Position numbers and translations under genes: made by a program. Shown here piece after piece: positions 2-58,390 of a DNA stretch of 64,000 bases. Each line of letters opens with the position of its first letter. Position 1 is the first letter of the stretch. Source of the stretch: Clostridia bacterium. GTDB taxonomy: Bacteria > Bacillota > Clostridia > RGIG7378. The notes beneath the pieces were generated by a model. It saw only the letters and a list, made by a program, of their open reading frames with translations. It made no database searches and was not told the DNA's origin. Location: assembly GCA_017559445.1 (NCBI GenBank), contig JAFYSJ010000003.1, forward strand, positions 1,913 through 65,912, read 5' to 3'.

Positions 2-3000
2 ACGAGAATTAGTGTTACATATACACATACAGGAACAAGTCAGGCAAGAATTTATCCATATTTGGTTTTGAATGGAAATGGAACTATATATATTGATTCA
101 CTTCAGTTAGAGGAGAGCAAGACAGCTACAAGATTTAACATAGTCAGAAACAGCGATTTTGCTAGTTCTAATACAAGCTCTGGTATATTGGGATGGGATC
201 TTTCTGATTCCACCAGAATAAGTAGAGTAAATATATCTTCAGCCACAGACACTTTGGATAACAATGTAATCAAGATGGAAGGAGATCCTAATAGCCGTGC
301 ATATGCATCTCAGGAGATTAGTATTTCCGGCAAAAGTGGAGATACATTTGTAGTATCAGCTTGGGCTAAGGCAGATTCTGCACGATTAGGTGAAGTACAA
401 ACTTATGCACAAGATAGAATGTTTGGAATAAAGGTGCAGCTTTATAATAATAGTAACCTAATAAGTCAGGATATCTTCTCCTTTAATCCAGATATAGACT
501 CTACTAACAATTGGCAATATTTAGCTGAAGAGGTAAAAGTAAATGGAACAGTTACCTCTATTAAAATAACTCTTCTTTACGACTTTAACCTTAATACTGC
601 ATATTTTGACGGAATCCAAATATATAGGGAGAAGTTCGGTACAGAATACACATATAACACTGATGCAAACATAAGCCAGATTATTGATGCAAATGGAGGA
701 GAAACAACTTTAACCTATACTACACAGAATAAAAACAACATAGAGACTGTTAAACTTCCGGACAAAACAGAGTATGGATATGTATACAATGCGTATAACC
801 AAGTAATAAAGGAAACAACACCAGAGGGCATAGTATATTCCTATGTTTATGATGACTATGGCAATAATATAAAGTCCTTTGTAGGAACAACATCAAATCC
901 AAAGCAAATAGGCATTGAAGCACAGTATACTTTTAATGGTGAGTATTTGTCTTGGATTACAGATACCGTAGGAAATAAGACTAGATATGGATATGATACG
1001 GCTACAGGACGTCTTATATGGGTTCAGTATCCTAATGATACAACCTCTACTAGAACTGAATACAAGTATGATTCTAGAGGAAGACTTGTGTCTACATCTA
1101 AATCTAATGGAACGGCTACGCTAAAGGAGACAAATGCTTATTCAGAGGGAATGTTAAGCGTGCTAACTCATACAGGACAATCTGCTACAGATGATACAGA
1201 CTATTCATTCTTGTATAACAATTGTGACCTCATAAGTAGTGTAAAGGTTGGTTCTAGAACATTAGCATCTTACACCTACAATAACGCATATGAGAAGCAG
1301 CTAACAACCCTCGTATATGGTAATGGTCATAGCATTAATTATGTTTACGATGAGCACGGAAGGACATCTAGTATAACATATGGTTCAAATGGCAATTCAG
1401 GTCTTACATATACCTATGATCAGGAAGGTAGACTTTCTGAGGTTACAGATTCGGATGCTGCTACTATTACGAAGTATGTTTATGACGAAACAGGTAGATT
1501 AGAAAAATATAGGATAACTTCTGGAAACAATGTTTTGTATCAGGAGGAGTATAGCTATAACCAACTGAATAATGTAACTGGCATAAAAGCCATTGTAAAT
1601 GATAAGTTTTTAATCTCAAATTATAGTTATAACGACAATAATGTATTGACTGAAATTGCAGAAACTTTTGGTTCTAATTCTATATCACAAAGACAGGTTT
1701 ATGCTTATGATACTCTTGGTAGATTGGCAACTATTTATTCTAAAGAGGGTGCCACGAATGTAGTGACTACAAGTTTGGATTACAAAGCACCGAATAATAG
1801 TCATGCAAGCAGCATGCTTGTATCTACTACAACTGTAGTATCACAGTGGATTAATACCTATGGTGGAACAACATCTAGCTATTATTATGAATACGATGGT
1901 AATGGCAATATTACTGAGATATCTCCTGATAATGTGTTTAATGATGGGGATGGTGTGGAATTCCAATATGATTCCATAAATCAGTTAACTAGAGTAAATG
2001 ATAAAATAAATAACGAGACATGGGTTTATACTTATGACTTAGGTGGCAATATAACCTCTAAGAAGAGATATGCATATACAACAGGCACCTTGGGCTCTGT
2101 ATTAGAAACCGTATCCTACTCTTATACAGATAGCAGCTGGGCAGACTTGCTTACATCTTATAATGGCAAGTCGATAACTTATGATGCAATAGGCAACACG
2201 TTAAGTGATGGCACGTGGACTTATACATGGGCGCGTGGCAGACAGCTAGCAAGTCAAAATGACGGCACAACAACATGGTCTTATACATACGATGCAACTG
2301 GTCAAAGACTTACTAAATCTAATGGAACACTTACATATCACTATATCTATAACGATATGCAGTTAATGTATATGAAGGTGAAAAATGGTTCTACTGTAGT
2401 ATGTGAGATGTATTTCCAGTATGGACAGCTTGGCCTCATGGCCATACAATATATTAGTAGTAGCTTGACAGACACATACTATGTAGTAACTAATGCTCAG
2501 GGTGATGTTGTTGCTCTGGTTGATGGTAGTGGAACAAAGGTTGTCGAATATACCTACGACGCATGGGGTAAGTTAACAAACATGACAGGCTCTAAGGTTG
2601 GCACAGTAGGTAAGTATAACCCCATCCGCTACAGAGATTATGTCTACGATACAGAAACACAGCTGTATTATCTCAACACTAGATACTACAATCCTGATAT
2701 GTGCAGGTTTATTAATGCAGATGGCTATGCAAGTACAGGAGATGAGCTTACAGGATCTAATATGTTTGCGTACTGTGCAAATAATCCTGTGAATATGACC
2801 GATCCAACAGGTGAGTTGCCAGATTGGGCAAATAAATGGATTGCTATTGTTACGGTAGCTACTGTTGTAGCTGTAGCTACGACAATAACAGTTATGACCT
2901 ATGGAGCAGGTTCTGTTGCTGGTGTTGCGATGATAAGTGCTACATTAACTTTATTAGCAAAAACAACCGAAGTCGCCGTGTTGCAAGTAAAAAAAGGGGT

Positions 3001-3307
3001 ATTGGAGGAAGATGATAGTAATCAAATCACACAAGATACAATTGAAGCAATTTATGATAACGGCTTGAAAATAATAGGTTTTACCCCTTTCACCAAGACA
3101 GTAGGAATAGGAGCTAATCATTTTTTAACAGCAACGGTTGTTAAGGATTTTGGAGGAATTCAGACATTGAATCAAACACTACAATCAACTGGTGGTAAGG
3201 CAATGCCTTATGCATTTGCTGCGATTGCGTGGGTAAACACAATTAATTCTGCATTTTCTAATGATCCTGAAAGTAGAGCTAAGTCAAGAGGATATGTATT
3301 AAAATGA
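2..3307 (+). CDS. RHS/YD-repeat polymorphic toxin (WapA-like), 5'-truncated by the window
   Basis: Frame is open from base 2, so the track start at 62 is not the real start. Many YD/YTYD repeats; RHS core end YYLNTRYYNPDMCRFINAD...NMFAYCANNPVNMTDPTG, then a 164-aa variable tip (2813-3307). Confidence 0.93.
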   Translation, partial: TRISVTYTHTGTSQARIYPYLVLNGNGTIYIDSLQLEESKTATRFNIVRNSDFASSNTSSGILGWDLSDSTRISRVNISSATDTLDNNVIKMEGDPNSRAYASQEISISGKSGDTFVVSAWAKADSARLGEVQTYAQDRMFGIKVQLYNNSNLISQDIFSFNPDIDSTNNWQYLAEEVKVNGTVTSIKITLLYDFNLNTAYFDGIQIYREKFGTEYTYNTDANISQIIDANGGETTLTYTTQNKNNIETVKLPDKTEYGYVYNAYNQVIKETTPEGIVYSYVYDDYGNNIKSFVGTTSNPKQIGIEAQYTFNGEYLSWITDTVGNKTRYGYDTATGRLIWVQYPNDTTSTRTEYKYDSRGRLVSTSKSNGTATLKETNAYSEGMLSVLTHTGQSATDDTDYSFLYNNCDLISSVKVGSRTLASYTYNNAYEKQLTTLVYGNGHSINYVYDEHGRTSSITYGSNGNSGLTYTYDQEGRLSEVTDSDAATITKYVYDETGRLEKYRITSGNNVLYQEEYSYNQLNNVTGIKAIVNDKFLISNYSYNDNNVLTEIAETFGSNSISQRQVYAYDTLGRLATIYSKEGATNVVTTSLDYKAPNNSHASSMLVSTTTVVSQWINTYGGTTSSYYYEYDGNGNITEISPDNVFNDGDGVEFQYDSINQLTRVNDKINNETWVYTYDLGGNITSKKRYAYTTGTLGSVLETVSYSYTDSSWADLLTSYNGKSITYDAIGNTLSDGTWTYTWARGRQLASQNDGTTTWSYTYDATGQRLTKSNGTLTYHYIYNDMQLMYMKVKNGSTVVCEMYFQYGQLGLMAIQYISSSLTDTYYVVTNAQGDVVALVDGSGTKVVEYTYDAWGKLTNMTGSKVGTVGKYNPIRYRDYVYDTETQLYYLNTRYYNPDMCRFINADGYASTGDELTGSNMFAYCANNPVNMTDPTGELPDWANKWIAIVTVATVVAVATTITVMTYGAGSVAGVAMISATLTLLAKTTEVAVLQVKKGVLEEDDSNQITQDTIEAIYDNGLKIIGFTPFTKTVGIGANHFLTATVVKDFGGIQTLNQTLQSTGGKAMPYAFAAIAWVNTINSAFSNDPESRAKSRGYVLK

Positions 3308-11949: not shown

Positions 11950-12449
11950 TGAATCTGAGTCAAAGACAAGTTGAAAATAGAGTAGTTGAACTTTTGATCT
12001 ACAAGGGATGGCAGGTGGCTTTTGCCGAATCATGCACAGGCGGATTGGCAGCGGCTAGAATCGTGGATGTTCCAAATGCGTCTAAGGTTCTCAGCGCATC
12101 CTTTGTCACATATTCTCCAGAGGCAAAGCAGCAGTTCGTAGGAGTTATGCCAGGAACTATTGAGGAATTTGGCATAGTAAGCGAGCAGGTTGCATTGCAG
12201 ATGGCAGTTGGAGCAGCAAAGGCAGCTGGTGCCCAGGTTGGCGTTGGCATAACAGGCATTGCTGGACCTGAGGGAGGCACTGAAAAGATACCAGTTGGTA
12301 CTGTTTGTGTAGGTATTTGTGCAGGCAACAATATTAGGTCATTTACAATTCACTGTGGTGATATGTGCAAGACACGCAACGAGGTGAGACAGTTCGCTGT
12401 AGATGCTGTCATGGGATACTTGGAGCAGACGATTAAAATTAGCTTTTAG
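11949..12449 (+). CDS. pncC: CinA C-terminal domain / NMN deamidase
   Basis: AESCTGG, AVGA, GITGIAGP, VGTVCVG. Confidence 0.88.
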   Translation: MNLSQRQVENRVVELLIYKGWQVAFAESCTGGLAAARIVDVPNASKVLSASFVTYSPEAKQQFVGVMPGTIEEFGIVSEQVALQMAVGAAKAAGAQVGVGITGIAGPEGGTEKIPVGTVCVGICAGNNIRSFTIHCGDMCKTRNEVRQFAVDAVMGYLEQTIKISF

Positions 12450-12494
12450 TGAACCGGCTGCACCTCGTGAAATGTGCTGTATACGTGAAAAATG

Positions 12495-12535
12495 AGTGCT
12501 TAATTGATGGAAAACCATTGATTAGGCACTTTTTT
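12495..12535 (+). terminator. Intrinsic terminator
   Basis: AGTGCTTAATTGATGG-aaaa-CCATTGATTAGGCACT stem (three G-U pairs) followed by a T run. Confidence 0.75.
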
Positions 12536-12628: not shown

Positions 12629-12780
12629 GGCTCACTAACGAGCTTTGCTCGTGGCCTACTAGCCGAAGGCGGCCACTAGCGAATGCAATGAGCGGCCACT
12701 AGCGCAGCGGTCACTAGCAACGCAGTTGCGGCTCACTAACGAGCTTTGCTCGTGGCCTACTAGCCGAAGGCGGCCACTAG
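12629..12780 (+). repeat. Modular linker/GNA-hairpin array 1
   Basis: 8 linkers GGYY(Y)ACTA alternating with 7 mini-hairpins; includes a 52-bp direct repeat (12628-12679 and 12729-12780). Confidence 0.92.
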
Positions 12781-12800
12781 AGAATGCGTCACACTAATGC

Positions 12801-12829
12801 TTTACGCTTTCCCTTATAGGTGTTAAAAT
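12801..12829 (+). promoter_or_regulatory. Putative sigmaA promoter of trpS
   Basis: TTTACG-17 bp-TAAAAT with TG extended -10, 32 nt before the trpS ATG. Confidence 0.55.
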
Positions 12830-12861: not shown

Positions 12862-13842
12862 ATGGCTGGCACAATTTTAAGCGGCATGAGACCTACAGGT
12901 AGACTTCACCTGGGTAATTATTTTGGAGCATTAGAGAACTGGGTAAGACTCCAGGATCAGTATAATTGTTATTTCTTCGTAGCAGATTGGCACGCCCTTA
13001 CAACAGGATATGATTCCACAGAGGTTATTATACCTAACACATATGAGATGGTAGCAGATTTCTTGGCAGCAGGACTTGATCCAGAGAAGTGCGCTATTTT
13101 CCGCCAGTCTGATGTTAAGGAGCATGCAGAGCTTCACTTGCTCATGTCCATGATTACTCCCTTGTCTTGGCTTGAGCGTTGTCCCACATACAAGGATATG
13201 ATTCAGCAGCTTAGCAACAAGGATATCAATTCCTATGGCTTCCTTGGCTATCCCGCACTTATGTCCTGCGATATTTTGATGTACAAGGCAGATGCAGTTC
13301 CAGTAGGAGAGGATCAGCTTCCTCACCTTGAGTTTACAAGAGAGATGGTTAGAAGATTTAACCACCTTTATGGACCTGTTTTCCCAGAGCCAAAGGCACT
13401 TATGACAGAGGCAAAGGTTCTTCCTGGTACAGATGGACGTAAGATGTCTAAGAGCTACAATAATACAATTGCTTTGGCAGATGATCCAGATACAGTACGC
13501 ACTAAGGTTATGTCCATGATTACAGACGCTTCCCGTATTAAGAAGACAGATCCAGGACATCCTGACATTTGCTCTGTTTACGCATATCACAAGGTGTTCA
13601 ATCCTGAGCAGGTTCCAGAGATTACTGAGCAGTGCAAGGGTGGATGCATCGGTTGCGTACAGTGCAAGAAGGCATTAGCAGCAAAGATTTCTGAGTACCT
13701 TACACCTATCTACGAGCGCAGACAGGCTATCGTAGCAGACAAGGGTTATATTGATGATGTTTTGGAGGCAGGCAGAATTAAGGCAGCAGCTAGGGCAGCA
13801 GCTACTATGGACGACGTTCGTTCTGCAATGCATTTTAAGTAA
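12862..13842 (+). CDS. trpS: Tryptophanyl-tRNA synthetase
   Basis: SGMRPTGRLHLGNY, VPVGEDQ, KMSKS. Confidence 0.97.
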   Translation: MAGTILSGMRPTGRLHLGNYFGALENWVRLQDQYNCYFFVADWHALTTGYDSTEVIIPNTYEMVADFLAAGLDPEKCAIFRQSDVKEHAELHLLMSMITPLSWLERCPTYKDMIQQLSNKDINSYGFLGYPALMSCDILMYKADAVPVGEDQLPHLEFTREMVRRFNHLYGPVFPEPKALMTEAKVLPGTDGRKMSKSYNNTIALADDPDTVRTKVMSMITDASRIKKTDPGHPDICSVYAYHKVFNPEQVPEITEQCKGGCIGCVQCKKALAAKISEYLTPIYERRQAIVADKGYIDDVLEAGRIKAAARAAATMDDVRSAMHFK

Positions 13843-19594: not shown

Positions 19595-19722
19595 GGCTCA
19601 CTAGCGAGTGAAACGAGCAGATACTAGCAACGCAGTTGCGGCCTACTAGCGCAGCGGTTCACTAGCCGAAGGCGGCTCACTAGCGCAGCGGTTCACTAGC
19701 GTAGCGGCTTAATCGCGTAGCG
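19595..19722 (+). repeat. Modular linker/GNA-hairpin array 2
   Basis: 7 linkers alternating with 7 GNA-loop hairpins; same vocabulary as array 1 in a different order. Confidence 0.92.
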
Positions 19723-19747
19723 AAAAACTACACCAAAGGTGAAAGTA

Positions 19748-38942: not shown

Positions 38943-39077
38943 GTGCCTGCTTGATGGTATCAGTCGGGTCTTGCGCAATGAAATCCTGTGAACCTTGTCA
39001 GGTCCGGAAGGAAGCAGCAATAAGCAGATCCTTTCATGTGCCGTAAGTTAGCCTTGCTGATACCATTAAGCAGGCAT
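38943..39077 (+). ncRNA. ffs: Signal recognition particle RNA (small bacterial type)
   Basis: GTCAGGTCCGGAAGGAAGCAGC domain IV; ends pair (TGCCTGCTTGATGGTATCAG with CTGATACCATTAAGCAGGCA); upstream of dnaX as is usual in Firmicutes. Confidence 0.95.
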
Positions 39078-39098
39078 AAAGTCATTAAGGGGGTAAGT

Positions 39099-40745
39099 AT
39101 GGCATATACAGCAATGTATCGTAAGTATAGACCATTGGTTTTTTCTGACGTTGTTGGTCAAGACCATATTGTTAGAGCTTTGTCCAATAGCATTGCAACA
39201 GGTCGCATTTCCCATGCTTATCTTTTCTGTGGTACTAGAGGTACTGGTAAGACTACAATGGCCAAGATTTTTGCTAGAGCCATTAACTGTCTCGATTCTC
39301 ATGATGGCAATCCATGTAATGCCTGCGATGTATGTAAGGGGATTTTGGACGAGAGCATTGTGGATGTTATGGAGATCGACGCTGCATCTAACAATGGCGT
39401 AGATAGCATCCGTGACATTAGAGATGATGTAGCTTACACACCTACAGTTGCTAAATACAAGGTGTACATTATTGACGAGGTACACATGCTTTCAGGAGCA
39501 GCTTTCAATGCTTTGCTTAAGACATTGGAGGAGCCACCGGAGCATGCAGTATTCTTGCTTGCAACAACAGACCCTCAGAGATTGCCAGATACAATTCTTT
39601 CCCGTGTGCAGAGATTTAACCTTAAGCGTATTTCTGACCAGGATATTGCAGATAGACTTATGTATATCGCAGAGGATATGGGACTTTCTCTCACTAGGGA
39701 GACAGCACTTTATATTGCCAGATTGGCAGATGGTGCATTGAGAGATGGTATTAGCATTTTAGATAGATGCTATTCTGCAGGGGCAGACATTACCATGGAC
39801 TTGGTTGCAGAGACTACAGGCACTCTTAGCCGCAGTTTTGTTTACGAGGCATGTACTCATTTGCTTATGAGAGATCCAGCGGCAGTACTGGACGATGTGT
39901 CCAAGGTTGTTGCACAGGGACGTAGACTTGCAGATTATACAGATAGTTTGCTTGATGCCCTTAAGGATTTGTTAGTTTACTCATTGTCTTCTGACAAAAG
40001 TAGCTATAACCCAACAGAAAATCGCACACAATTCATGGAGCAGAATTGCCAGTTGTCTTCACCAGAGGGACTAGTTAAGTTAATCGCTGGTATTAATGAG
40101 GCAGCAGGTAACATGCGTTATAGTAGCGCTCCAGAGATTACTTTGTCAGCAGCTCTTGTTAGCCTTATGACAGAGGATACATCCAATGTACCAACAATTA
40201 ATGCAGGCGGTTTTGCTAGATCCTCTGAGAGCGATCGTAGAATTGCAGCACTTGAGCGTAGAGTAACAGAGCTTACGGCTAAGCTTGAGGAGGCCATGGT
40301 TAATGGCGTACAGGCAACACAGGTAGTGGTAGATACACCTAAGGTTCCAGAACCTAAGGCAGAAGAGGTGGCAGAGCTTAGTAAGTCTGACACTTTGGAC
40401 AAGTATCCACCTTACAATGACAGATCAGAGCTCATAATGAGAGTTAAGGACACTAGGAGCATGTTCCTAGCTGTATATATTAAGGACAGACCCATGGTGG
40501 CACCATCTGACCAGCTTGTGGCAATTGTCTTTGATAAGGAGAAAGAGGATATCCGCAGAACAGTTGCGACAGCGGAGAACCTTAAGCTTTTGTCTGACTT
40601 GGCAACAGATATTGCAGGACATCCTGTGAGGGTTGTGCTTGTTAGCAAGGAGAACGCTGACAGACAGTTGGCAGATGTTGAGAGAGATTTACAGGGAGCC
40701 CGCGAGTTGGCAGAGAGCCTGGGCACTTCCCTGACTATAGAATAA
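39099..40745 (+). CDS. dnaX: DNA polymerase III subunit gamma/tau
   Basis: YRKYRP, GTRGTGKTT, EIDAASNNGVD, IIDEVHML. Confidence 0.97.
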   Translation: MAYTAMYRKYRPLVFSDVVGQDHIVRALSNSIATGRISHAYLFCGTRGTGKTTMAKIFARAINCLDSHDGNPCNACDVCKGILDESIVDVMEIDAASNNGVDSIRDIRDDVAYTPTVAKYKVYIIDEVHMLSGAAFNALLKTLEEPPEHAVFLLATTDPQRLPDTILSRVQRFNLKRISDQDIADRLMYIAEDMGLSLTRETALYIARLADGALRDGISILDRCYSAGADITMDLVAETTGTLSRSFVYEACTHLLMRDPAAVLDDVSKVVAQGRRLADYTDSLLDALKDLLVYSLSSDKSSYNPTENRTQFMEQNCQLSSPEGLVKLIAGINEAAGNMRYSSAPEITLSAALVSLMTEDTSNVPTINAGGFARSSESDRRIAALERRVTELTAKLEEAMVNGVQATQVVVDTPKVPEPKAEEVAELSKSDTLDKYPPYNDRSELIMRVKDTRSMFLAVYIKDRPMVAPSDQLVAIVFDKEKEDIRRTVATAENLKLLSDLATDIAGHPVRVVLVSKENADRQLADVERDLQGARELAESLGTSLTIE

Positions 40746-45832: not shown

Positions 45833-47935
45833 ATGACTTATAAATCTATTCTTAAATCTCTTGCATTGCTTGTTGTATGTAGCATGTTGTTCTGCCCTGC
45901 TTTGGGACAGGCTGCAACAGGAACTATTACTGGCACTGATGTTAATATGCGTCAGGGCGCTGGTACTAATACAGCAGTTCTTACTACATTGGGCAAAGGT
46001 GATGTAGTTAATGTTCTTAGCACACAGGGAGATTGGGTAAAGGTTTCCTTTGGTGGATATACAGGCTATGTATATGGAACATATGTTAAGACAACATCCG
46101 TTGGCAATGGCGTTGTTACAGGCGACTACGTTAACATGAGAGACGCAGCAGGTACTAACTCCAATGTTATTACATGCTTGAGAGCAGGTACTCAGGTAGA
46201 GGTAGTTGAGAAGGTCGGTACATGGTACAAGATTAAGTATAATGGCAACACAGGTTATATGTCTGCTAACTATATTAGCACTACATATACTCCTCCAACT
46301 CAGACAACAGCAACACCAGCTCCTACAGCCGCTCCAACAGCAGCTCCAACTGCGGTGCCAACAGCTGTTCCTACAGCTAAGCCTCAGGATGGCGCAGGCA
46401 CAGGTATTTTGACAGGTGACTATGTTAACTTCCGTACACAGGCCACAAGCTCCAGCTCAGTTATTGATTGTTTGAGAGCAGGATCCAAGTTCACAGTATA
46501 TGAGAAGACAGGCACTTGGCTTAAGATTAAGTATAACGGACAGGTTGGTTATATTTACGCTTCCTACGTTAATGTTACATGGTACACAACAGCAACACCA
46601 GCTCCAACTGCCACACCTACTACAGGTACAACAGTTACTTTGAGCACAGGTACAGGTAAGGTTACAGGTGACGTTGTTAACGTTAGATCTGGCGCAGGTA
46701 CAAGCTACTCCGTAGTTACAGCACTTACAGCTGGCACAACAGTTAAGGTAACAGGTAAGGATGGCGTATGGTACAAGATTACTAGCGGTAGCACAACAGG
46801 CTATATGCATAGCAACTATGTTTCTGTAGTTTGGGATACAATTACTGTTACACCTACACCAACAGCAGCACCTACAGCAGCACCAACTGCAACTCCAACT
46901 GCTACACCTACAGAGGTGCCAACAGTAACACCTACACCAACAGCAACTCCAGTTCCAACACCTACACCAGTACCAACACCTACTGTTAAGCCAACAGCAA
47001 CTCCTAATCCGGATGCTGATTTCACAGTAAATGACAGCGGTATTATCGTAGTTGACAAGGCTTTGACTGAGTATGTTTATGCAACTATTAAGGTTACAGG
47101 TGACGTTGTTAATGTAAGAGCAGGCGCAGGTACTAACTACGATGTAATCTATACAGTAAAGAAGGGCAACGAGATTATGCTCTTTGATATTGTAGGAGAC
47201 TGGGCTCTTATTGCATATAACAATCAGTTTGGTTGGATTAGTAAGACTTTGACAACAGCAGCAGATTGTACAAGACTTAAGATTACCGCCTCTGATCTTA
47301 ACGTAAGAGAAGTTGTTCTAAGTGGTAAGGTTATTGGTCAGCTTCAGAAGAATGATATTGTACTCGGTTGTCAGGCTAGCCTCGGTTGGTACAACGTAAT
47401 GAGCTACGATGGTAAGTATAATGGTGGCAAGTGCTGGATTTCTGGCAACTATACAACTAAGGCAGATGACGGCAAGGTTATCAACGAGACAGTTCCTAAG
47501 TACATTAGAGAGAACGGTATCGTAACAGCTGAGGTTATTAAGGAAACAGACAGAGACAAGATTGTAAACAAGGCTAAGGAGTACTTGGGCGTAACATACG
47601 TTTACGGCGGAGAGACACCTAGCGGCTTCGATTGTTCTGGTTTCATCTACTACGTATACGAGCAGGTTCTCGGACTTAAGCTTGAGAGAGTAGCAGCTAA
47701 CCAGGCAACACAGGGTGTACACAAGACTCTCGGTGAATTGCAGCCCGGCGATTTGGTGTTCTTTGATACAAACGGCACAAGCAGCTACATTAACCACGTT
47801 GGTATTTACCTTGGAGATAACATGTTTATCCATGCATCCTCCGGTAGTGGCAAGGTTGTTATTTCACAGTTGTCAGGATTCTATTCCAAGACATACATGA
47901 CTGGTAGAAATGTAATTGATTACATGCCATATTAA
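45833..47935 (+). CDS. Secreted cell-wall endopeptidase: six SH3b domains plus NlpC/P60
   Basis: Signal peptide, repeated TGDxVNxRxxAG SH3b starts, Pro/Thr linkers, GFDCSG and HVGIY..HAS catalytic motifs. Confidence 0.93.
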   Translation: MTYKSILKSLALLVVCSMLFCPALGQAATGTITGTDVNMRQGAGTNTAVLTTLGKGDVVNVLSTQGDWVKVSFGGYTGYVYGTYVKTTSVGNGVVTGDYVNMRDAAGTNSNVITCLRAGTQVEVVEKVGTWYKIKYNGNTGYMSANYISTTYTPPTQTTATPAPTAAPTAAPTAVPTAVPTAKPQDGAGTGILTGDYVNFRTQATSSSSVIDCLRAGSKFTVYEKTGTWLKIKYNGQVGYIYASYVNVTWYTTATPAPTATPTTGTTVTLSTGTGKVTGDVVNVRSGAGTSYSVVTALTAGTTVKVTGKDGVWYKITSGSTTGYMHSNYVSVVWDTITVTPTPTAAPTAAPTATPTATPTEVPTVTPTPTATPVPTPTPVPTPTVKPTATPNPDADFTVNDSGIIVVDKALTEYVYATIKVTGDVVNVRAGAGTNYDVIYTVKKGNEIMLFDIVGDWALIAYNNQFGWISKTLTTAADCTRLKITASDLNVREVVLSGKVIGQLQKNDIVLGCQASLGWYNVMSYDGKYNGGKCWISGNYTTKADDGKVINETVPKYIRENGIVTAEVIKETDRDKIVNKAKEYLGVTYVYGGETPSGFDCSGFIYYVYEQVLGLKLERVAANQATQGVHKTLGELQPGDLVFFDTNGTSSYINHVGIYLGDNMFIHASSGSGKVVISQLSGFYSKTYMTGRNVIDYMPY

Positions 47936-56950: not shown

Positions 56951-58390
56951 ATGGTACCGTACGAAGGTAGAGAGCCATATATTTTCATTAGCTATGCCCA
57001 CAAGGATAGCGATGTAGTCATGCCTATTATTGAGGCCATGGCTGATTATGGTTTTCGTATTTGGTACGACGAAGGTATTGAAGCTGGTACTGAGTGGCCT
57101 GAGTACATAGCAGAGCATTTGGAGAATGCAGGAGCGGTTATTGCTTTCTTATCTGATGCATCCTTGGGATCTATTAATTGTCGTCAGGAAATAAATGAGG
57201 CAATCAATATGCAAAAGGATCTGTTGGCTATTCATCTTCATGAGGTGAAGTTGACTCCAGGTATGCGCATGAGACTTAGCTTGATTCAGGCTATGTTTAT
57301 GTATCGCCACAAGGATATGGATAGTTTCTATGGTGCCCTCTTTAGAGCACAGATTTTGGCTCCTTGCTTAGGTGAGAAAAAGGTTGTTGAACAGCCAGTG
57401 ACGCCTAAGACAGAGGCGGTCCCGGTGGTAGAGAGCATTGTGGAACAACAGGTTCAAGAACCGGAGAACACATTTGAGGAATATCCAATTTCTGATCCAG
57501 AGGATTTCAAAATTCACGATGGAGTCCTTGATGAATACACTGGAAGCAGTGTAATTGTCCTTGTGCCAGAAGGAGTAAGAGAAATTGGCTATAACGAGCA
57601 GAATTTTTGCTTAGTATTAATGGTGAATTCCAAGGCAAAGAACGCCTTTGGTAGAAATAAGGACATTACAGAAGTTATTGTACCAGAAGGTGTTGAGTAC
57701 ATAGGCCATATGGCGTTTTATGGTTGTGAAAACTTAGTTCGCGTCGTATTGCCAAAGACCTTGAAGAAAATAGATAAAAATGCATTCCAAAACTGCTACG
57801 AATTGAAGCAATTGGAGATTCCAGAGGATAGTAATCTTCAATTCATAGGTGAAAGTGCCTTTGAAAACTGCAGTAGTCTTGATAAACTAAGCTTGCCAAA
57901 GTCTTTAAATTACATAGGAAAGAATGCTTTTAGAGCTTGCAGAAGTCTTCAGTCTGTTAGATTTCCATTGGATGGAGCTTTGGAAAAAGTTGGTGAGGAT
58001 ACATTCTTTAATTGCTCGGCACTTGAAAAGGTGACACTTCCTAAATGTGTGATTGTTGTTGAAAAGAGGGCATTTTATGGTTGCAAAAGCCTATGGGATA
58101 TTAACATGCCACAATCCTTAAGGGAGATAAAGGAAGCGGCTTTTAAGAACTGTGAGAGACTTGAACTAGTAGATTGTGCGTGGTTGGGTGTGCTTAAAGT
58201 TATTGAAAAAGAAGCTTTTAGTGGATGTACAGCCTTGAAAACTTTAAGACTTTCCGATACAGTTGAAATGATAGAGGAAGAAGCATTTGTAGGTTGCATT
58301 TCTTTGGATCGTGTAGATATACCTAGGAAGACAAAGATGCCAATGTTTAAACAGGTGTTTCCAAAGCATACAACAGTAAAACGTGTTTAG
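56951..58390 (+). CDS. TIR domain fused to BspA-type leucine-rich repeats, no export signal
   Basis: IFISYAHKD, IWYDEGIEAGTEW, CRQEI (conserved Glu); acidic linker; about 9-10 LRR_5 repeats. Confidence 0.9.
   Translation: MVPYEGREPYIFISYAHKDSDVVMPIIEAMADYGFRIWYDEGIEAGTEWPEYIAEHLENAGAVIAFLSDASLGSINCRQEINEAINMQKDLLAIHLHEVKLTPGMRMRLSLIQAMFMYRHKDMDSFYGALFRAQILAPCLGEKKVVEQPVTPKTEAVPVVESIVEQQVQEPENTFEEYPISDPEDFKIHDGVLDEYTGSSVIVLVPEGVREIGYNEQNFCLVLMVNSKAKNAFGRNKDITEVIVPEGVEYIGHMAFYGCENLVRVVLPKTLKKIDKNAFQNCYELKQLEIPEDSNLQFIGESAFENCSSLDKLSLPKSLNYIGKNAFRACRSLQSVRFPLDGALEKVGEDTFFNCSALEKVTLPKCVIVVEKRAFYGCKSLWDINMPQSLREIKEAAFKNCERLELVDCAWLGVLKVIEKEAFSGCTALKTLRLSDTVEMIEEEAFVGCISLDRVDIPRKTKMPMFKQVFPKHTTVKRV

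Follow-up and report, generated by a model that had tools for sequence, protein, structure and literature searches.

Our analysis of a 64,000-nucleotide stretch of DNA from a Clostridia bacterium (GTDB lineage Bacteria; Bacillota; Clostridia; RGIG7378; GenBank assembly GCA_017559445.1, contig JAFYSJ010000003.1, forward-strand positions 1,913 to 65,912; the whole stretch is called the window below) indicates that an array of very small hairpins, joined by a constant linker and lying upstream of the trpS gene, belongs to what looks, from its sequence, like an undescribed repeat of unusual modular build, similar to repetitive extragenic palindromic (REP) sequences and occurring in at least two phyla, since arrays of the same design are found in Prevotellaceae. 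Our tentative explanation is that the arrays form a dispersed, fast-evolving family of extragenic repeats, akin to REPs and bacterial interspersed mosaic elements (BIMEs), which operates at the level of single-stranded DNA (ssDNA) and which would be shaped by slippage together with a trans-acting ssDNA cut-and-join enzyme. Slippage has left direct traces in the arrays; the mobilisation by an enzyme is what we infer.

The array upstream of trpS (array 1), as seen by direct reading, consists of seven linker-plus-hairpin units at positions 12629-12779 of the plus strand and is closed by an eighth linker. The linkers have the form GG[CT]{2,3}ACTA (12629-37, 12653-61, 12671-78, 12694-701, 12709-16, 12730-38, 12754-62 and 12772-79), and the spacers between them are, in order, ACGAGC-TTT-GCTCGT, GCC-GAA-GGC, GC-GA-AT-GCA-AT-GA-GC, GC-GCA-GC, GCAAC-GCA-GTTGC, ACGAGC-TTT-GCTCGT and GCC-GAA-GGC. 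If we denote the hairpins by A (ACGAGCTTTGCTCGT), B (GCCGAAGGC), C (GCGAATGCAATGAGC), D (GCGCAGC) and E (GCAACGCAGTTGC), the order is A-B-C-D-E-A-B. This agrees exactly with the division into linkers and hairpins proposed in an initial annotation made from the sequence alone. Its count of seven units stands while its end coordinate shifts, the final full linker stopping at 12779 and a degenerate eighth unit continuing to 12796. That terminal unit (12780..12796, plus strand) is made up of a truncated hairpin, GAGAATGC, and the linker-like GTCACACTA, and it forms the right boundary of array 1. In strain L086 the truncated hairpin reads GCGAATGC instead of GAGAATGC, and from TCACACTAATGC onward the alignment shows a sequence common to all strains, also to those in which the locus has a different filling.

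A second array (array 2), located by Tandem Repeats Finder and direct reading, has seven units at 19595-19730 on the plus strand, between the stop of typA (19581) and the start of mltG (19748). Its hairpins are, in order, GCGAGTGAAACGAGC, E, D, B, D, GCGTAGC and GCGTAGC, and its linkers include three degenerate ones, AGATACTA, GGCTTAATC and, at the end of the array, GAAAAACTA. The spacing from linker to linker in the arrays varies over 15-24 bp. Moreover, a solo unit in reverse orientation (12447-12474, minus strand) overlaps the stop codon of cinA; read on the minus strand it gives TTCAC-GA, then GGT-GCA-GCC, then GGTTCACTA (12447-12455). Apart from this unit, no further solo units above chance were found elsewhere in the window. 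The statement in the initial annotation that the pattern exists on one strand only is thus correct for both window arrays, but given the minus-strand unit at the cinA stop it does not hold for the family.

The array pattern is far beyond chance. The linker-hairpin-linker pattern ACTAGCGNAGCGGN{1,4}ACTA has 3 matches in the window as against 0 in 100 shuffles, and 9 of the 11 window matches to GGYYNACTA fall inside the two arrays, all 9 on the plus strand. An end-to-end hairpin is present in each of the 14 spacers of the two arrays; among random window substrings the frequency of such hairpins is 0.064 for 7-mers, 0.026 for 9-mers, 0.005 for 13-mers and 0.002 for 15-mers. The loop is GNA in 12 of the 14 spacers, compared with a GNA trinucleotide frequency of 7.8% in the background, and in array 1, for which a majority of GNA loops had been claimed earlier, it is GNA in 5 of 7, the other 2 being TTT. 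The arrays recur in independent assemblies from ENA, Logan and NCBI, which excludes an artefact of assembly.

A strand-specific structure of the arrays as ssDNA, which the initial annotation had proposed in preference to RNA, appears well founded on three features of the sequence. Firstly, tandem G.A/A.G mismatches, set in a pyrimidine-GA-purine context, are found on the ACTA strand of at least nine distinct hairpin types from both phyla; read from the complement they would be C.T/T.C, and in no type is the pattern reversed. Secondly, most loops are those of a known class of DNA mini-hairpin: GCGCAGC, GCGTAGC, GCGAAGC, GCC-GAA-GGC, GCAAC-GCA-GTTGC and GGACC-GAA-GGTCC all have, by sequence, the motif of that class (GC-GNA-GC or a triloop closed as C-GNA-G). 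Thirdly, the commonest units have stems of two base pairs. Of all 64 GCNNNGC sequences only those with GNA loops give the mini-hairpin; GCGNAGC melts at 70-76 C as DNA, as compared to 39 C for r(GCGAAAGC), and the mini-hairpins are nuclease-resistant and poorly bound by single-stranded DNA-binding protein (SSB) (PMC13037366). Stems of just this kind, two base pairs long, would mean little as RNA.

The arrays draw on a shared vocabulary of hairpins, of which we count about 17 types in the window species. Array 1, array 2 and its L098 allele, and both reverse arrays of strain L084 described below all contain the 13-nt GCAACGCAGTTGC; GCGAGTGAAACGAGC is common to array 2 and L084, and GCAAGCTTTGCTTGC to both L084 arrays. 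These recurring hairpins have different neighbour units each time, and thus it appears that units have been exchanged between loci and orientations, and not only duplicated in place. This bears out the suggestion that the hairpins are interchangeable, as the same units stand in other orders at other loci, and the arrays change from strain to strain while the flanking proteins stay identical.

The differences between strains were followed at both loci. We compared array 1 alleles on contigs that encode a TrpS 100% identical to that of the window, and found 4 units in L104, 6 in L081, 7 in the window and in L080, L083, L085 and L103, 10 in L082 and at least 10 in L086. These alleles differ by whole unit blocks (ABCE duplications) and by one unit between near-identical linkers. 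Despite identical TrpS, three further contigs (L084, L087 and L088) have another intergenic filling at the cinA-trpS locus, which in L084 holds an 11-unit and a 3-unit array in the opposite orientation, the 11-unit array sitting where the window has the solo cinA-end unit. In this variant (L084:1073-1797, also L087 and L088) the whole cinA-trpS intergenic region is replaced and has a different terminator along with the reverse-oriented arrays. The replaced region includes a segment of about 330 bp that is bounded by direct repeats ACACTAAACACCAAACACTAGA, which are tag-like CACTA words without hairpins, and that contains a GC-rich stem, GCCTCCCGCGCTTCGGAAGTAGCGGGCG; Rfam gives nothing at E<=1 over the variant region.

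Array 2 alleles, compared on contigs with a 100% identical MltG, have 5 units in L100, 7 in the window and 14 in L098. The two units absent from L100 correspond to a segment lying exactly between two 16-nt GCGCAGC-GGTTCACTA direct repeats, and this deletion is, to judge from the sequence, a classical slippage signature. The hairpins of L098 mostly differ from those of the window (examples are GCGAAGC, GGACC-GAA-GGTCC and GCAAGC-TCT-GCTTGC). Point variants preserve the design, a GCA loop becoming GAA and T.G wobbles giving GT-GCA-GC and GGT-GCA-GCC. Four contigs (L086, L089, L099 and L092) start within an array, as multi-copy repeats would lead one to expect.

How widely does this design occur? 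A scan of a genome collection (596 Gb) with a loose 16-base pattern listed 79 loci, most of which are single chance matches in unrelated phyla. Six of the 79 are real arrays of the same design, on three contigs in each of two metagenome-assembled genomes (MAGs) of rumen Prevotellaceae, so that each MAG has at least three loci. Here the tag is GG-N3-4-ACTA, for example GGCAAACTA, and the hairpins include GCGAAGC (dominant), GCGC-GAA-GCGC, GC-GA-GC-NNN-GC-GA-GC and GC-GA-AGCC-GTGA-GGCT-GA-GC. The neighbours are rplM, lon, ruvC, deoC and similar genes, and some of the arrays lie just upstream of promoter-like sequences. A stricter pattern, run on JGI/ENA metagenomes, recovered the same Prevotellaceae contigs, related ones and, in addition, the JGI contig Ga0114958_10000826 (L092:1-1078), which has at least five GCGTAGC-GGCCACTA units and ends inside the array. 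The lineages have one invariant order of parts, namely ACTA, a hairpin with GC, as a rule, at both of its ends, GG, and 2-4 variable bases; all copies are extragenic. None of the three outcomes that the initial annotation had given as refuting its proposal is seen: the arrays vary in unit number and content between strains with identical TrpS or MltG, extend beyond two loci and one organism, and match no described REP family.

Two details of these distant arrays may be recorded. On the JGI contig a gene for a C5 cytosine DNA methyltransferase (PF00145, 270 bits) precedes the array, which begins right at the stop codon of that gene; the tag of the array contains CTAG and GGCC. In one Prevotellaceae MAG (L071:4640-4760) a short array abuts a long opposite array head to head with no gap, which recalls REP doublets. 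An exact search of the JGI metagenomes for the E unit, GCAACGCAGTTGC, gave no match. Phage sources were likewise negative, with 0 matches to two patterns in IMG/VR and no BLAST match in phage or plasmid collections, and on these grounds a phage or plasmid origin is ruled out.

Relatives of the window species provide empty loci for comparison with the filled ones, a contrast to which the initial annotation had pointed. Species whose MutS2 is 88% (L111) or 82% (L112, L101 and L102) identical lack arrays both ahead of trpS and in the typA-mltG spacer, and none occur anywhere in the 7.6-22 kb of readable synteny of these two sister species. At the cinA end of the 82% species a native TAGTGAA (TTCACTA on the opposite strand) stands by itself, with no hairpin. 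This single case would fit a seeding of arrays at pre-existing tag-like sequences. In this array-free sister species the typA-mltG spacer (L112:14307-14400 and L101:3533-3586) holds purine-rich degenerate GTAAGAAG/GTGAGAAG repeats, and the site thus seems to gather different simple repeats in each lineage.

We now place the two window arrays in their genomic setting. The window is a housekeeping region of an uncultured rumen bacterium, and the related samples are ruminant gut metagenomes; for MutS2, the nearest homologues beyond three close species clusters are only about 51% identical. The gene order is GT4 glycosyltransferase, cinA/pncC, terminator, array 1, trpS, scpA, scpB, mutS2, typA, array 2, mltG, U32 peptidase. 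GC skew is positive over the entire window and nearly all genes are on the plus strand; the plus strand is therefore the leading-strand sequence, i.e. the lagging-strand template. Upstream of array 1 is the intrinsic terminator of cinA/pncC (12494..12531, plus strand), a 17-bp stem followed by a T-run, and downstream is trpS, encoding tryptophan--tRNA ligase (12862..13842, plus strand; TIGR00233, 310 bits). A promoter scan puts the trpS core promoter at 12801..12829 (plus strand), with -35 TTTACG and an extended -10 TGTTAAAAT, and the array ends about 20 nt upstream of the -35. Both promoter boxes are conserved in all strains and in a sister species; in the alignment the conservation begins at CTTTACGC, and the sequence upstream is variable. 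Lying between a strong terminator and a conserved promoter, array 1 is outside the trpS mRNA. Array 2 stands between co-directional genes with no obvious terminator and for this reason is probably transcribed.

How could such arrays arise? By its sequence, each module is a very small hairpin clamped by G+C, in most cases with a GNA triloop and in some with tandem sheared G.A pairs, and after it comes the unpaired tag of GG, 2-4 variable bases and ACTA. In the explanation that we favor, the hairpins would snap shut on DNA that is transiently single-stranded, either as lagging-strand template or under strong negative supercoiling, and would leave the ACTA tag exposed between them. Duplications and deletions within an array would then come from the polymerase slipping or misaligning at the tags, which are repeated. 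A trans-acting ssDNA-specific enzyme, which might be an HUH/Y1 protein of the REP-associated tyrosine transposase (RAYT) or IS200 type or some other small nuclease, would recognise a tag next to any hairpin and would move modules to other ACTA-containing sites, whereby arrays would be seeded and reshuffled. A unit ending in its own target, ACTA, would recreate the insertion site each time, and head-to-tail arrays would be the outcome. The arrays themselves probably have no sequence-specific cellular function, effects on neighboring promoters or mRNA ends being probably secondary.

A number of our results weigh against this explanation. Consistent with what had been noted earlier, Pfam and NCBIfam searches of the window genes yield no candidate enzyme, there being no transposase, HUH/Y1, GIY-YIG, cas or other candidate gene in the window. 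A regular expression for the Y1 HUH motif, applied in six frames to about 110 related loci (about 0.8 Mb), found none, no gene is flanked by arrays, and no small nuclease gene adjoins any array examined. The strand bias that had been predicted is not strict, one strain having reverse-oriented arrays at the trpS locus, and with array orientation mixed a simple lagging-strand rule is not established. In the Clostridia genome the density is low: the one long stretch available, of about 71 kb, has two arrays and a single solo unit. Whole-array minimum free energy (MFE) z-scores are weak, at -1.5 to -2.7 on either strand, whether computed as DNA or as RNA, with no separation. Such folds are uninformative because long-range pairing between repeated units masks the mini-hairpins, and since the whole-array energies separate neither strand nor chemistry, the ssDNA argument rests on motif-level knowledge. 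In a comparison of independent arrays, hairpin types kept the linker upstream of them in 7/49 matches and the one downstream in 6/49, with a background of about 10-11%; this gives no signal that would place the module boundary or the cut site. Finally, most of the array differences that are traceable stepwise can, on the sequences at hand, arise without any enzyme.

This last point leads directly to the alternative that survives best, although we consider it doubtful, namely that the arrays are an enzyme-free minisatellite. Hairpin-prone tandem repeats would grow, shrink and become homogenised solely by replication slippage and template switching, with gene conversion or ectopic recombination now and then, and tag and hairpins would persist by promoting misalignment and not by being read by a protein. 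The L100 deletion exactly between two 16-nt direct repeats is what such a model expects, array 1 alleles that differ by whole unit blocks or by a single unit between near-identical linkers agree with it, and so does the negative enzyme search. However, slippage cannot move units to new loci or invert them, and we see the same 13-15-nt hairpins in different places, in different orders and in both orientations. Recombination of the RecA type, moreover, needs more than linkers of 8-9 nt. Many unit types keep their tandem G.A pairs, which are not Watson-Crick pairs, and their GNA loops, and template switching would not yield these. The model must also contend with the same ACTA...GG tag in Clostridia, in Prevotellaceae and on one further metagenome contig, and with the fact that L098 and the window share few array 2 units despite identical MltG.

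At the other extreme stands a bolder form of the enzyme hypothesis, which we regard as unlikely. According to it, the modules (hairpin plus GG-N2-4-ACTA, 15-24 nt) would be the smallest mobile DNA units yet seen, moved or copied singly by an unrecognised ssDNA cut-and-join enzyme that reads a tag flanked by any stable hairpin and not a palindrome of defined sequence, and they would have spread horizontally between rumen Clostridia and Prevotellaceae.

It is improbable, in our judgment, that the arrays are instead a host signal read on ssDNA, serving initiation or priming in the manner of G4-type origins, of RSF1010 ssiA or of the supercoil-extruded hairpins of N4, with SSB kept off a CTA-containing tag. 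The invariant tag does contain CTA, the preferred initiation trinucleotide of several Firmicute DnaG primases, and both window arrays fold on the G-rich plus strand, that is, on the lagging-strand template. Mini-hairpins are indeed found at the G4 primase origin, at ssiA and at the promoters of the N4 virion RNA polymerase (vRNAP), and they bind SSB poorly (PMC13037366). A required replication signal, however, is hard to reconcile with the hypervariability of the arrays, their absence in sister species and the reverse arrays at the same locus; and none were found in the phage contigs, phage records or plasmids searched, where such signals matter most.

We assign a very low probability to an element that works at the RNA level, either as a sponge or platform for a protein that reads ACUA between hairpins or as a 3' or 5' untranslated-region stabiliser. 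Array 2 is probably transcribed, REPs are known to stabilise upstream mRNA, and the RNA folding z-score reaches -2.7 on the plus strand. But array 1 is outside the trpS mRNA, several Prevotellaceae arrays (at least three) are antisense to both flanking genes, stems of two base pairs closed by GNA triloops are unstable as RNA, and array content is not conserved even between strains. Nor does Rfam offer a match: with Rfam 15, the signal recognition particle (SRP) RNA is the sole match over the whole window, nothing relevant appears at E<=10 over array 1, and nothing over one Prevotellaceae array. A T-box leader, another riboswitch or a small RNA was considered for array 1 and rejected, there being no Rfam match and the array lying upstream of the conserved trpS promoter.

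That the 8-9-bp linker is the duplex binding site of a regulator or nucleoid protein, repeated for cooperative binding near promoters, is hardly credible. In its favor, conservation lies in the linker, array 1 adjoins the trpS promoter, and promoter-like sequences follow closely after some of the Prevotellaceae arrays. But this leaves unexplained a hairpin in every spacer with strand-asymmetric G.A pairs and GNA loops, a spacing of 15-24 bp would put the sites on different faces of the helix, copy number differs freely between strains, and tryptophan genes are linked neither to array 2 nor to most of the other arrays. The last point also made us drop the idea of a Trp-repressor-like operator. 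It had been a lead only, based on the likeness of ACTAG to the CTAG core in the operator of the E. coli Trp repressor, and trp genes are connected neither with array 2 nor with the arrays of Prevotellaceae.

Elsewhere the window genes have ordinary functions, and a few side observations can be listed. The SRP RNA is of the small bacterial type (RF00169, 74 bits), at 38962-39061, immediately upstream of dnaX (39036-40745); the predicted dnaX reading frame shares 26 nt with it, so that dnaX probably begins at a later start codon. At the start of the window (62-3307) a gene resembling those of conflict systems encodes a 1081-aa RHS-repeat protein; another such gene, at 56951-58390, encodes a TIR_2 plus BspA-type leucine-rich repeat (LRR) protein, and two more TIR_2 proteins are encoded just past the window end in an 80.6-kb contig (L107:16125-18116). 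Imperfect 12/24-nt coding repeats (ACACCAACAGCA and similar) at 46311-46983 encode Thr/Pro/Ala-rich linkers inside a protein with five SH3_3 domains and NlpC/P60 (45809-47935), and are unrelated to the hairpin arrays.

If the arrays are a REP/BIME-like family acted on by slippage and by a trans-acting ssDNA enzyme, several consequences would follow. The theme of chromosomal repeats read as ssDNA, known from REP/RAYT and Ssn, would be extended to Clostridia and Prevotellaceae, in the form of interchangeable mini-hairpins on a fixed tag. There would be an enzyme with structure-plus-tag specificity for ssDNA, a class useful for ssDNA tools. The d(GCGNAGC) mini-hairpins, after 40 years as a biophysical curiosity, would gain a first chromosome-wide natural role. 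On the practical side, strain typing of uncultured rumen bacteria would gain a very fast marker, and recurrent contig breaks in rumen metagenome assemblies would be explained.

It remains to compare the arrays with known systems. In the literature we found no description for the exact unit strings or for mini-hairpin/GNA repeats in bacterial genomes, and no match in published REP tables. The closest likeness is to REP/BIME elements and their Y1 HUH enzymes, the RAYTs (TnpA_REP). In both cases short extragenic palindromes, which in the arrays are predicted to fold as ssDNA hairpins, have at their 5' foot an unpaired tetranucleotide that is conserved, and both are dispersed between housekeeping genes, often clustered and strain-variable; REPs are multi-copy, and the arrays are probably so as well. 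Some GTAG REP families form head-to-tail tandems, REP hairpin tips are often C-GAA-G, and RAYTs require the 5' tetranucleotide beside the REP hairpin for cleavage. The array hairpins, however, with 7-20 nt are below the REP range of 21-65 nt, and their sequence differs from unit to unit. The foot is ACTA in all units and all lineages, as against GT[AG]G in REPs, with no GTAG or GTGG present, and a 3' GG is conserved as well. The units are strictly head to tail and not alternating as in BIMEs, with inverted arrays abutting only occasionally (L071). No RAYT was found in the window or in the roughly 110 related loci, and while the arrays are hosted by Clostridia and Prevotellaceae, the GTAG/CGTC REP survey has no Firmicutes. 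For the Prevotellaceae arrays there is a lead, though not a match, in the Bacteroidetes RAYT subclass 2.6 (Bertels group 5), which has 'atypical' flanking hairpins without GTAG and copies of these elsewhere in the genome (Quentin et al. 2018, PMC6006769). These too are Bacteroidetes hairpin repeats lacking a GTAG foot, and the Aequorivita example has a GCTAG foot, but their stems are 8-10 bp and of conserved sequence, and the published table shows no ACTAGC or mini-hairpin arrays (PMC6006769).

Related principles are at work in two other enzyme systems. In the 'peel and paste' transposition of IS200/IS605 by the Y1 enzyme TnpA, a hairpin and an adjacent tetranucleotide set the cleavage on ssDNA of the lagging-strand template; TnpA and RAYTs both recognise this combination, and the elements insert 3' of a specific tetranucleotide target. 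Hairpin plus target can thus serve as a model for an ACTA-tagged module inserting beside another ACTA. The hairpins of IS200/IS605, however, end elements of 0.7-2 kb with their own transposase, whereas the array module would have 15-24 nt and be non-autonomous. The NTS/SRM repeats of the GIY-YIG nuclease Ssn are hairpin repeats, numbering hundreds, which are read as ssDNA by a small site-specific nuclease and are clustered around genes, and the dRS3-based intergenic mosaic elements of Neisseria combine a constant element with variable inserts. The NTS motif, about 30 bp long, differs from the arrays in that its palindrome, ATTCCC-N8-GGGAAT, and its flanks are conserved, while the stems of the arrays vary freely in sequence and the tag alone is constant; and no ssnA-like gene was seen in the window or adjoining arrays.

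A constant repeat alternating with variable spacers, in strain-variable copy number, also brings CRISPR to mind. CRISPR repeats, though, have 24-48 nt and unique foreign spacers, while here an 8-9-nt repeat separates palindromic spacers of 7-20 nt from a small, reused vocabulary, each genome probably has many small arrays, and the window contains no cas genes; CRISPR identity is ruled out on these grounds. The TAACTGA heptamer repeats of Beggiatoaceae, Cyanobacteria and Bacteroidetes are likewise short constant intergenic words with a patchy cross-phylum spread and no known mechanism, but their heptamers are contiguous, with no hairpins as spacers, stand for the most part shortly before start codons and have been proposed to act at the RNA level (PMC4679880). 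Finally, the d(GCGNAGC) hairpins at the origins of phages G4, St-1 and alpha3, at RSF1010 ssiA and at the N4 virion-RNAP promoters have the identical core (GC-GNA-GC, CC-GAA-GG) and have their roles only as ssDNA. Those are single origin or promoter sites of phages and plasmids, whereas the arrays described here are chromosomal, polymorphic and multi-locus, and set the same mini-hairpins on a constant linker.

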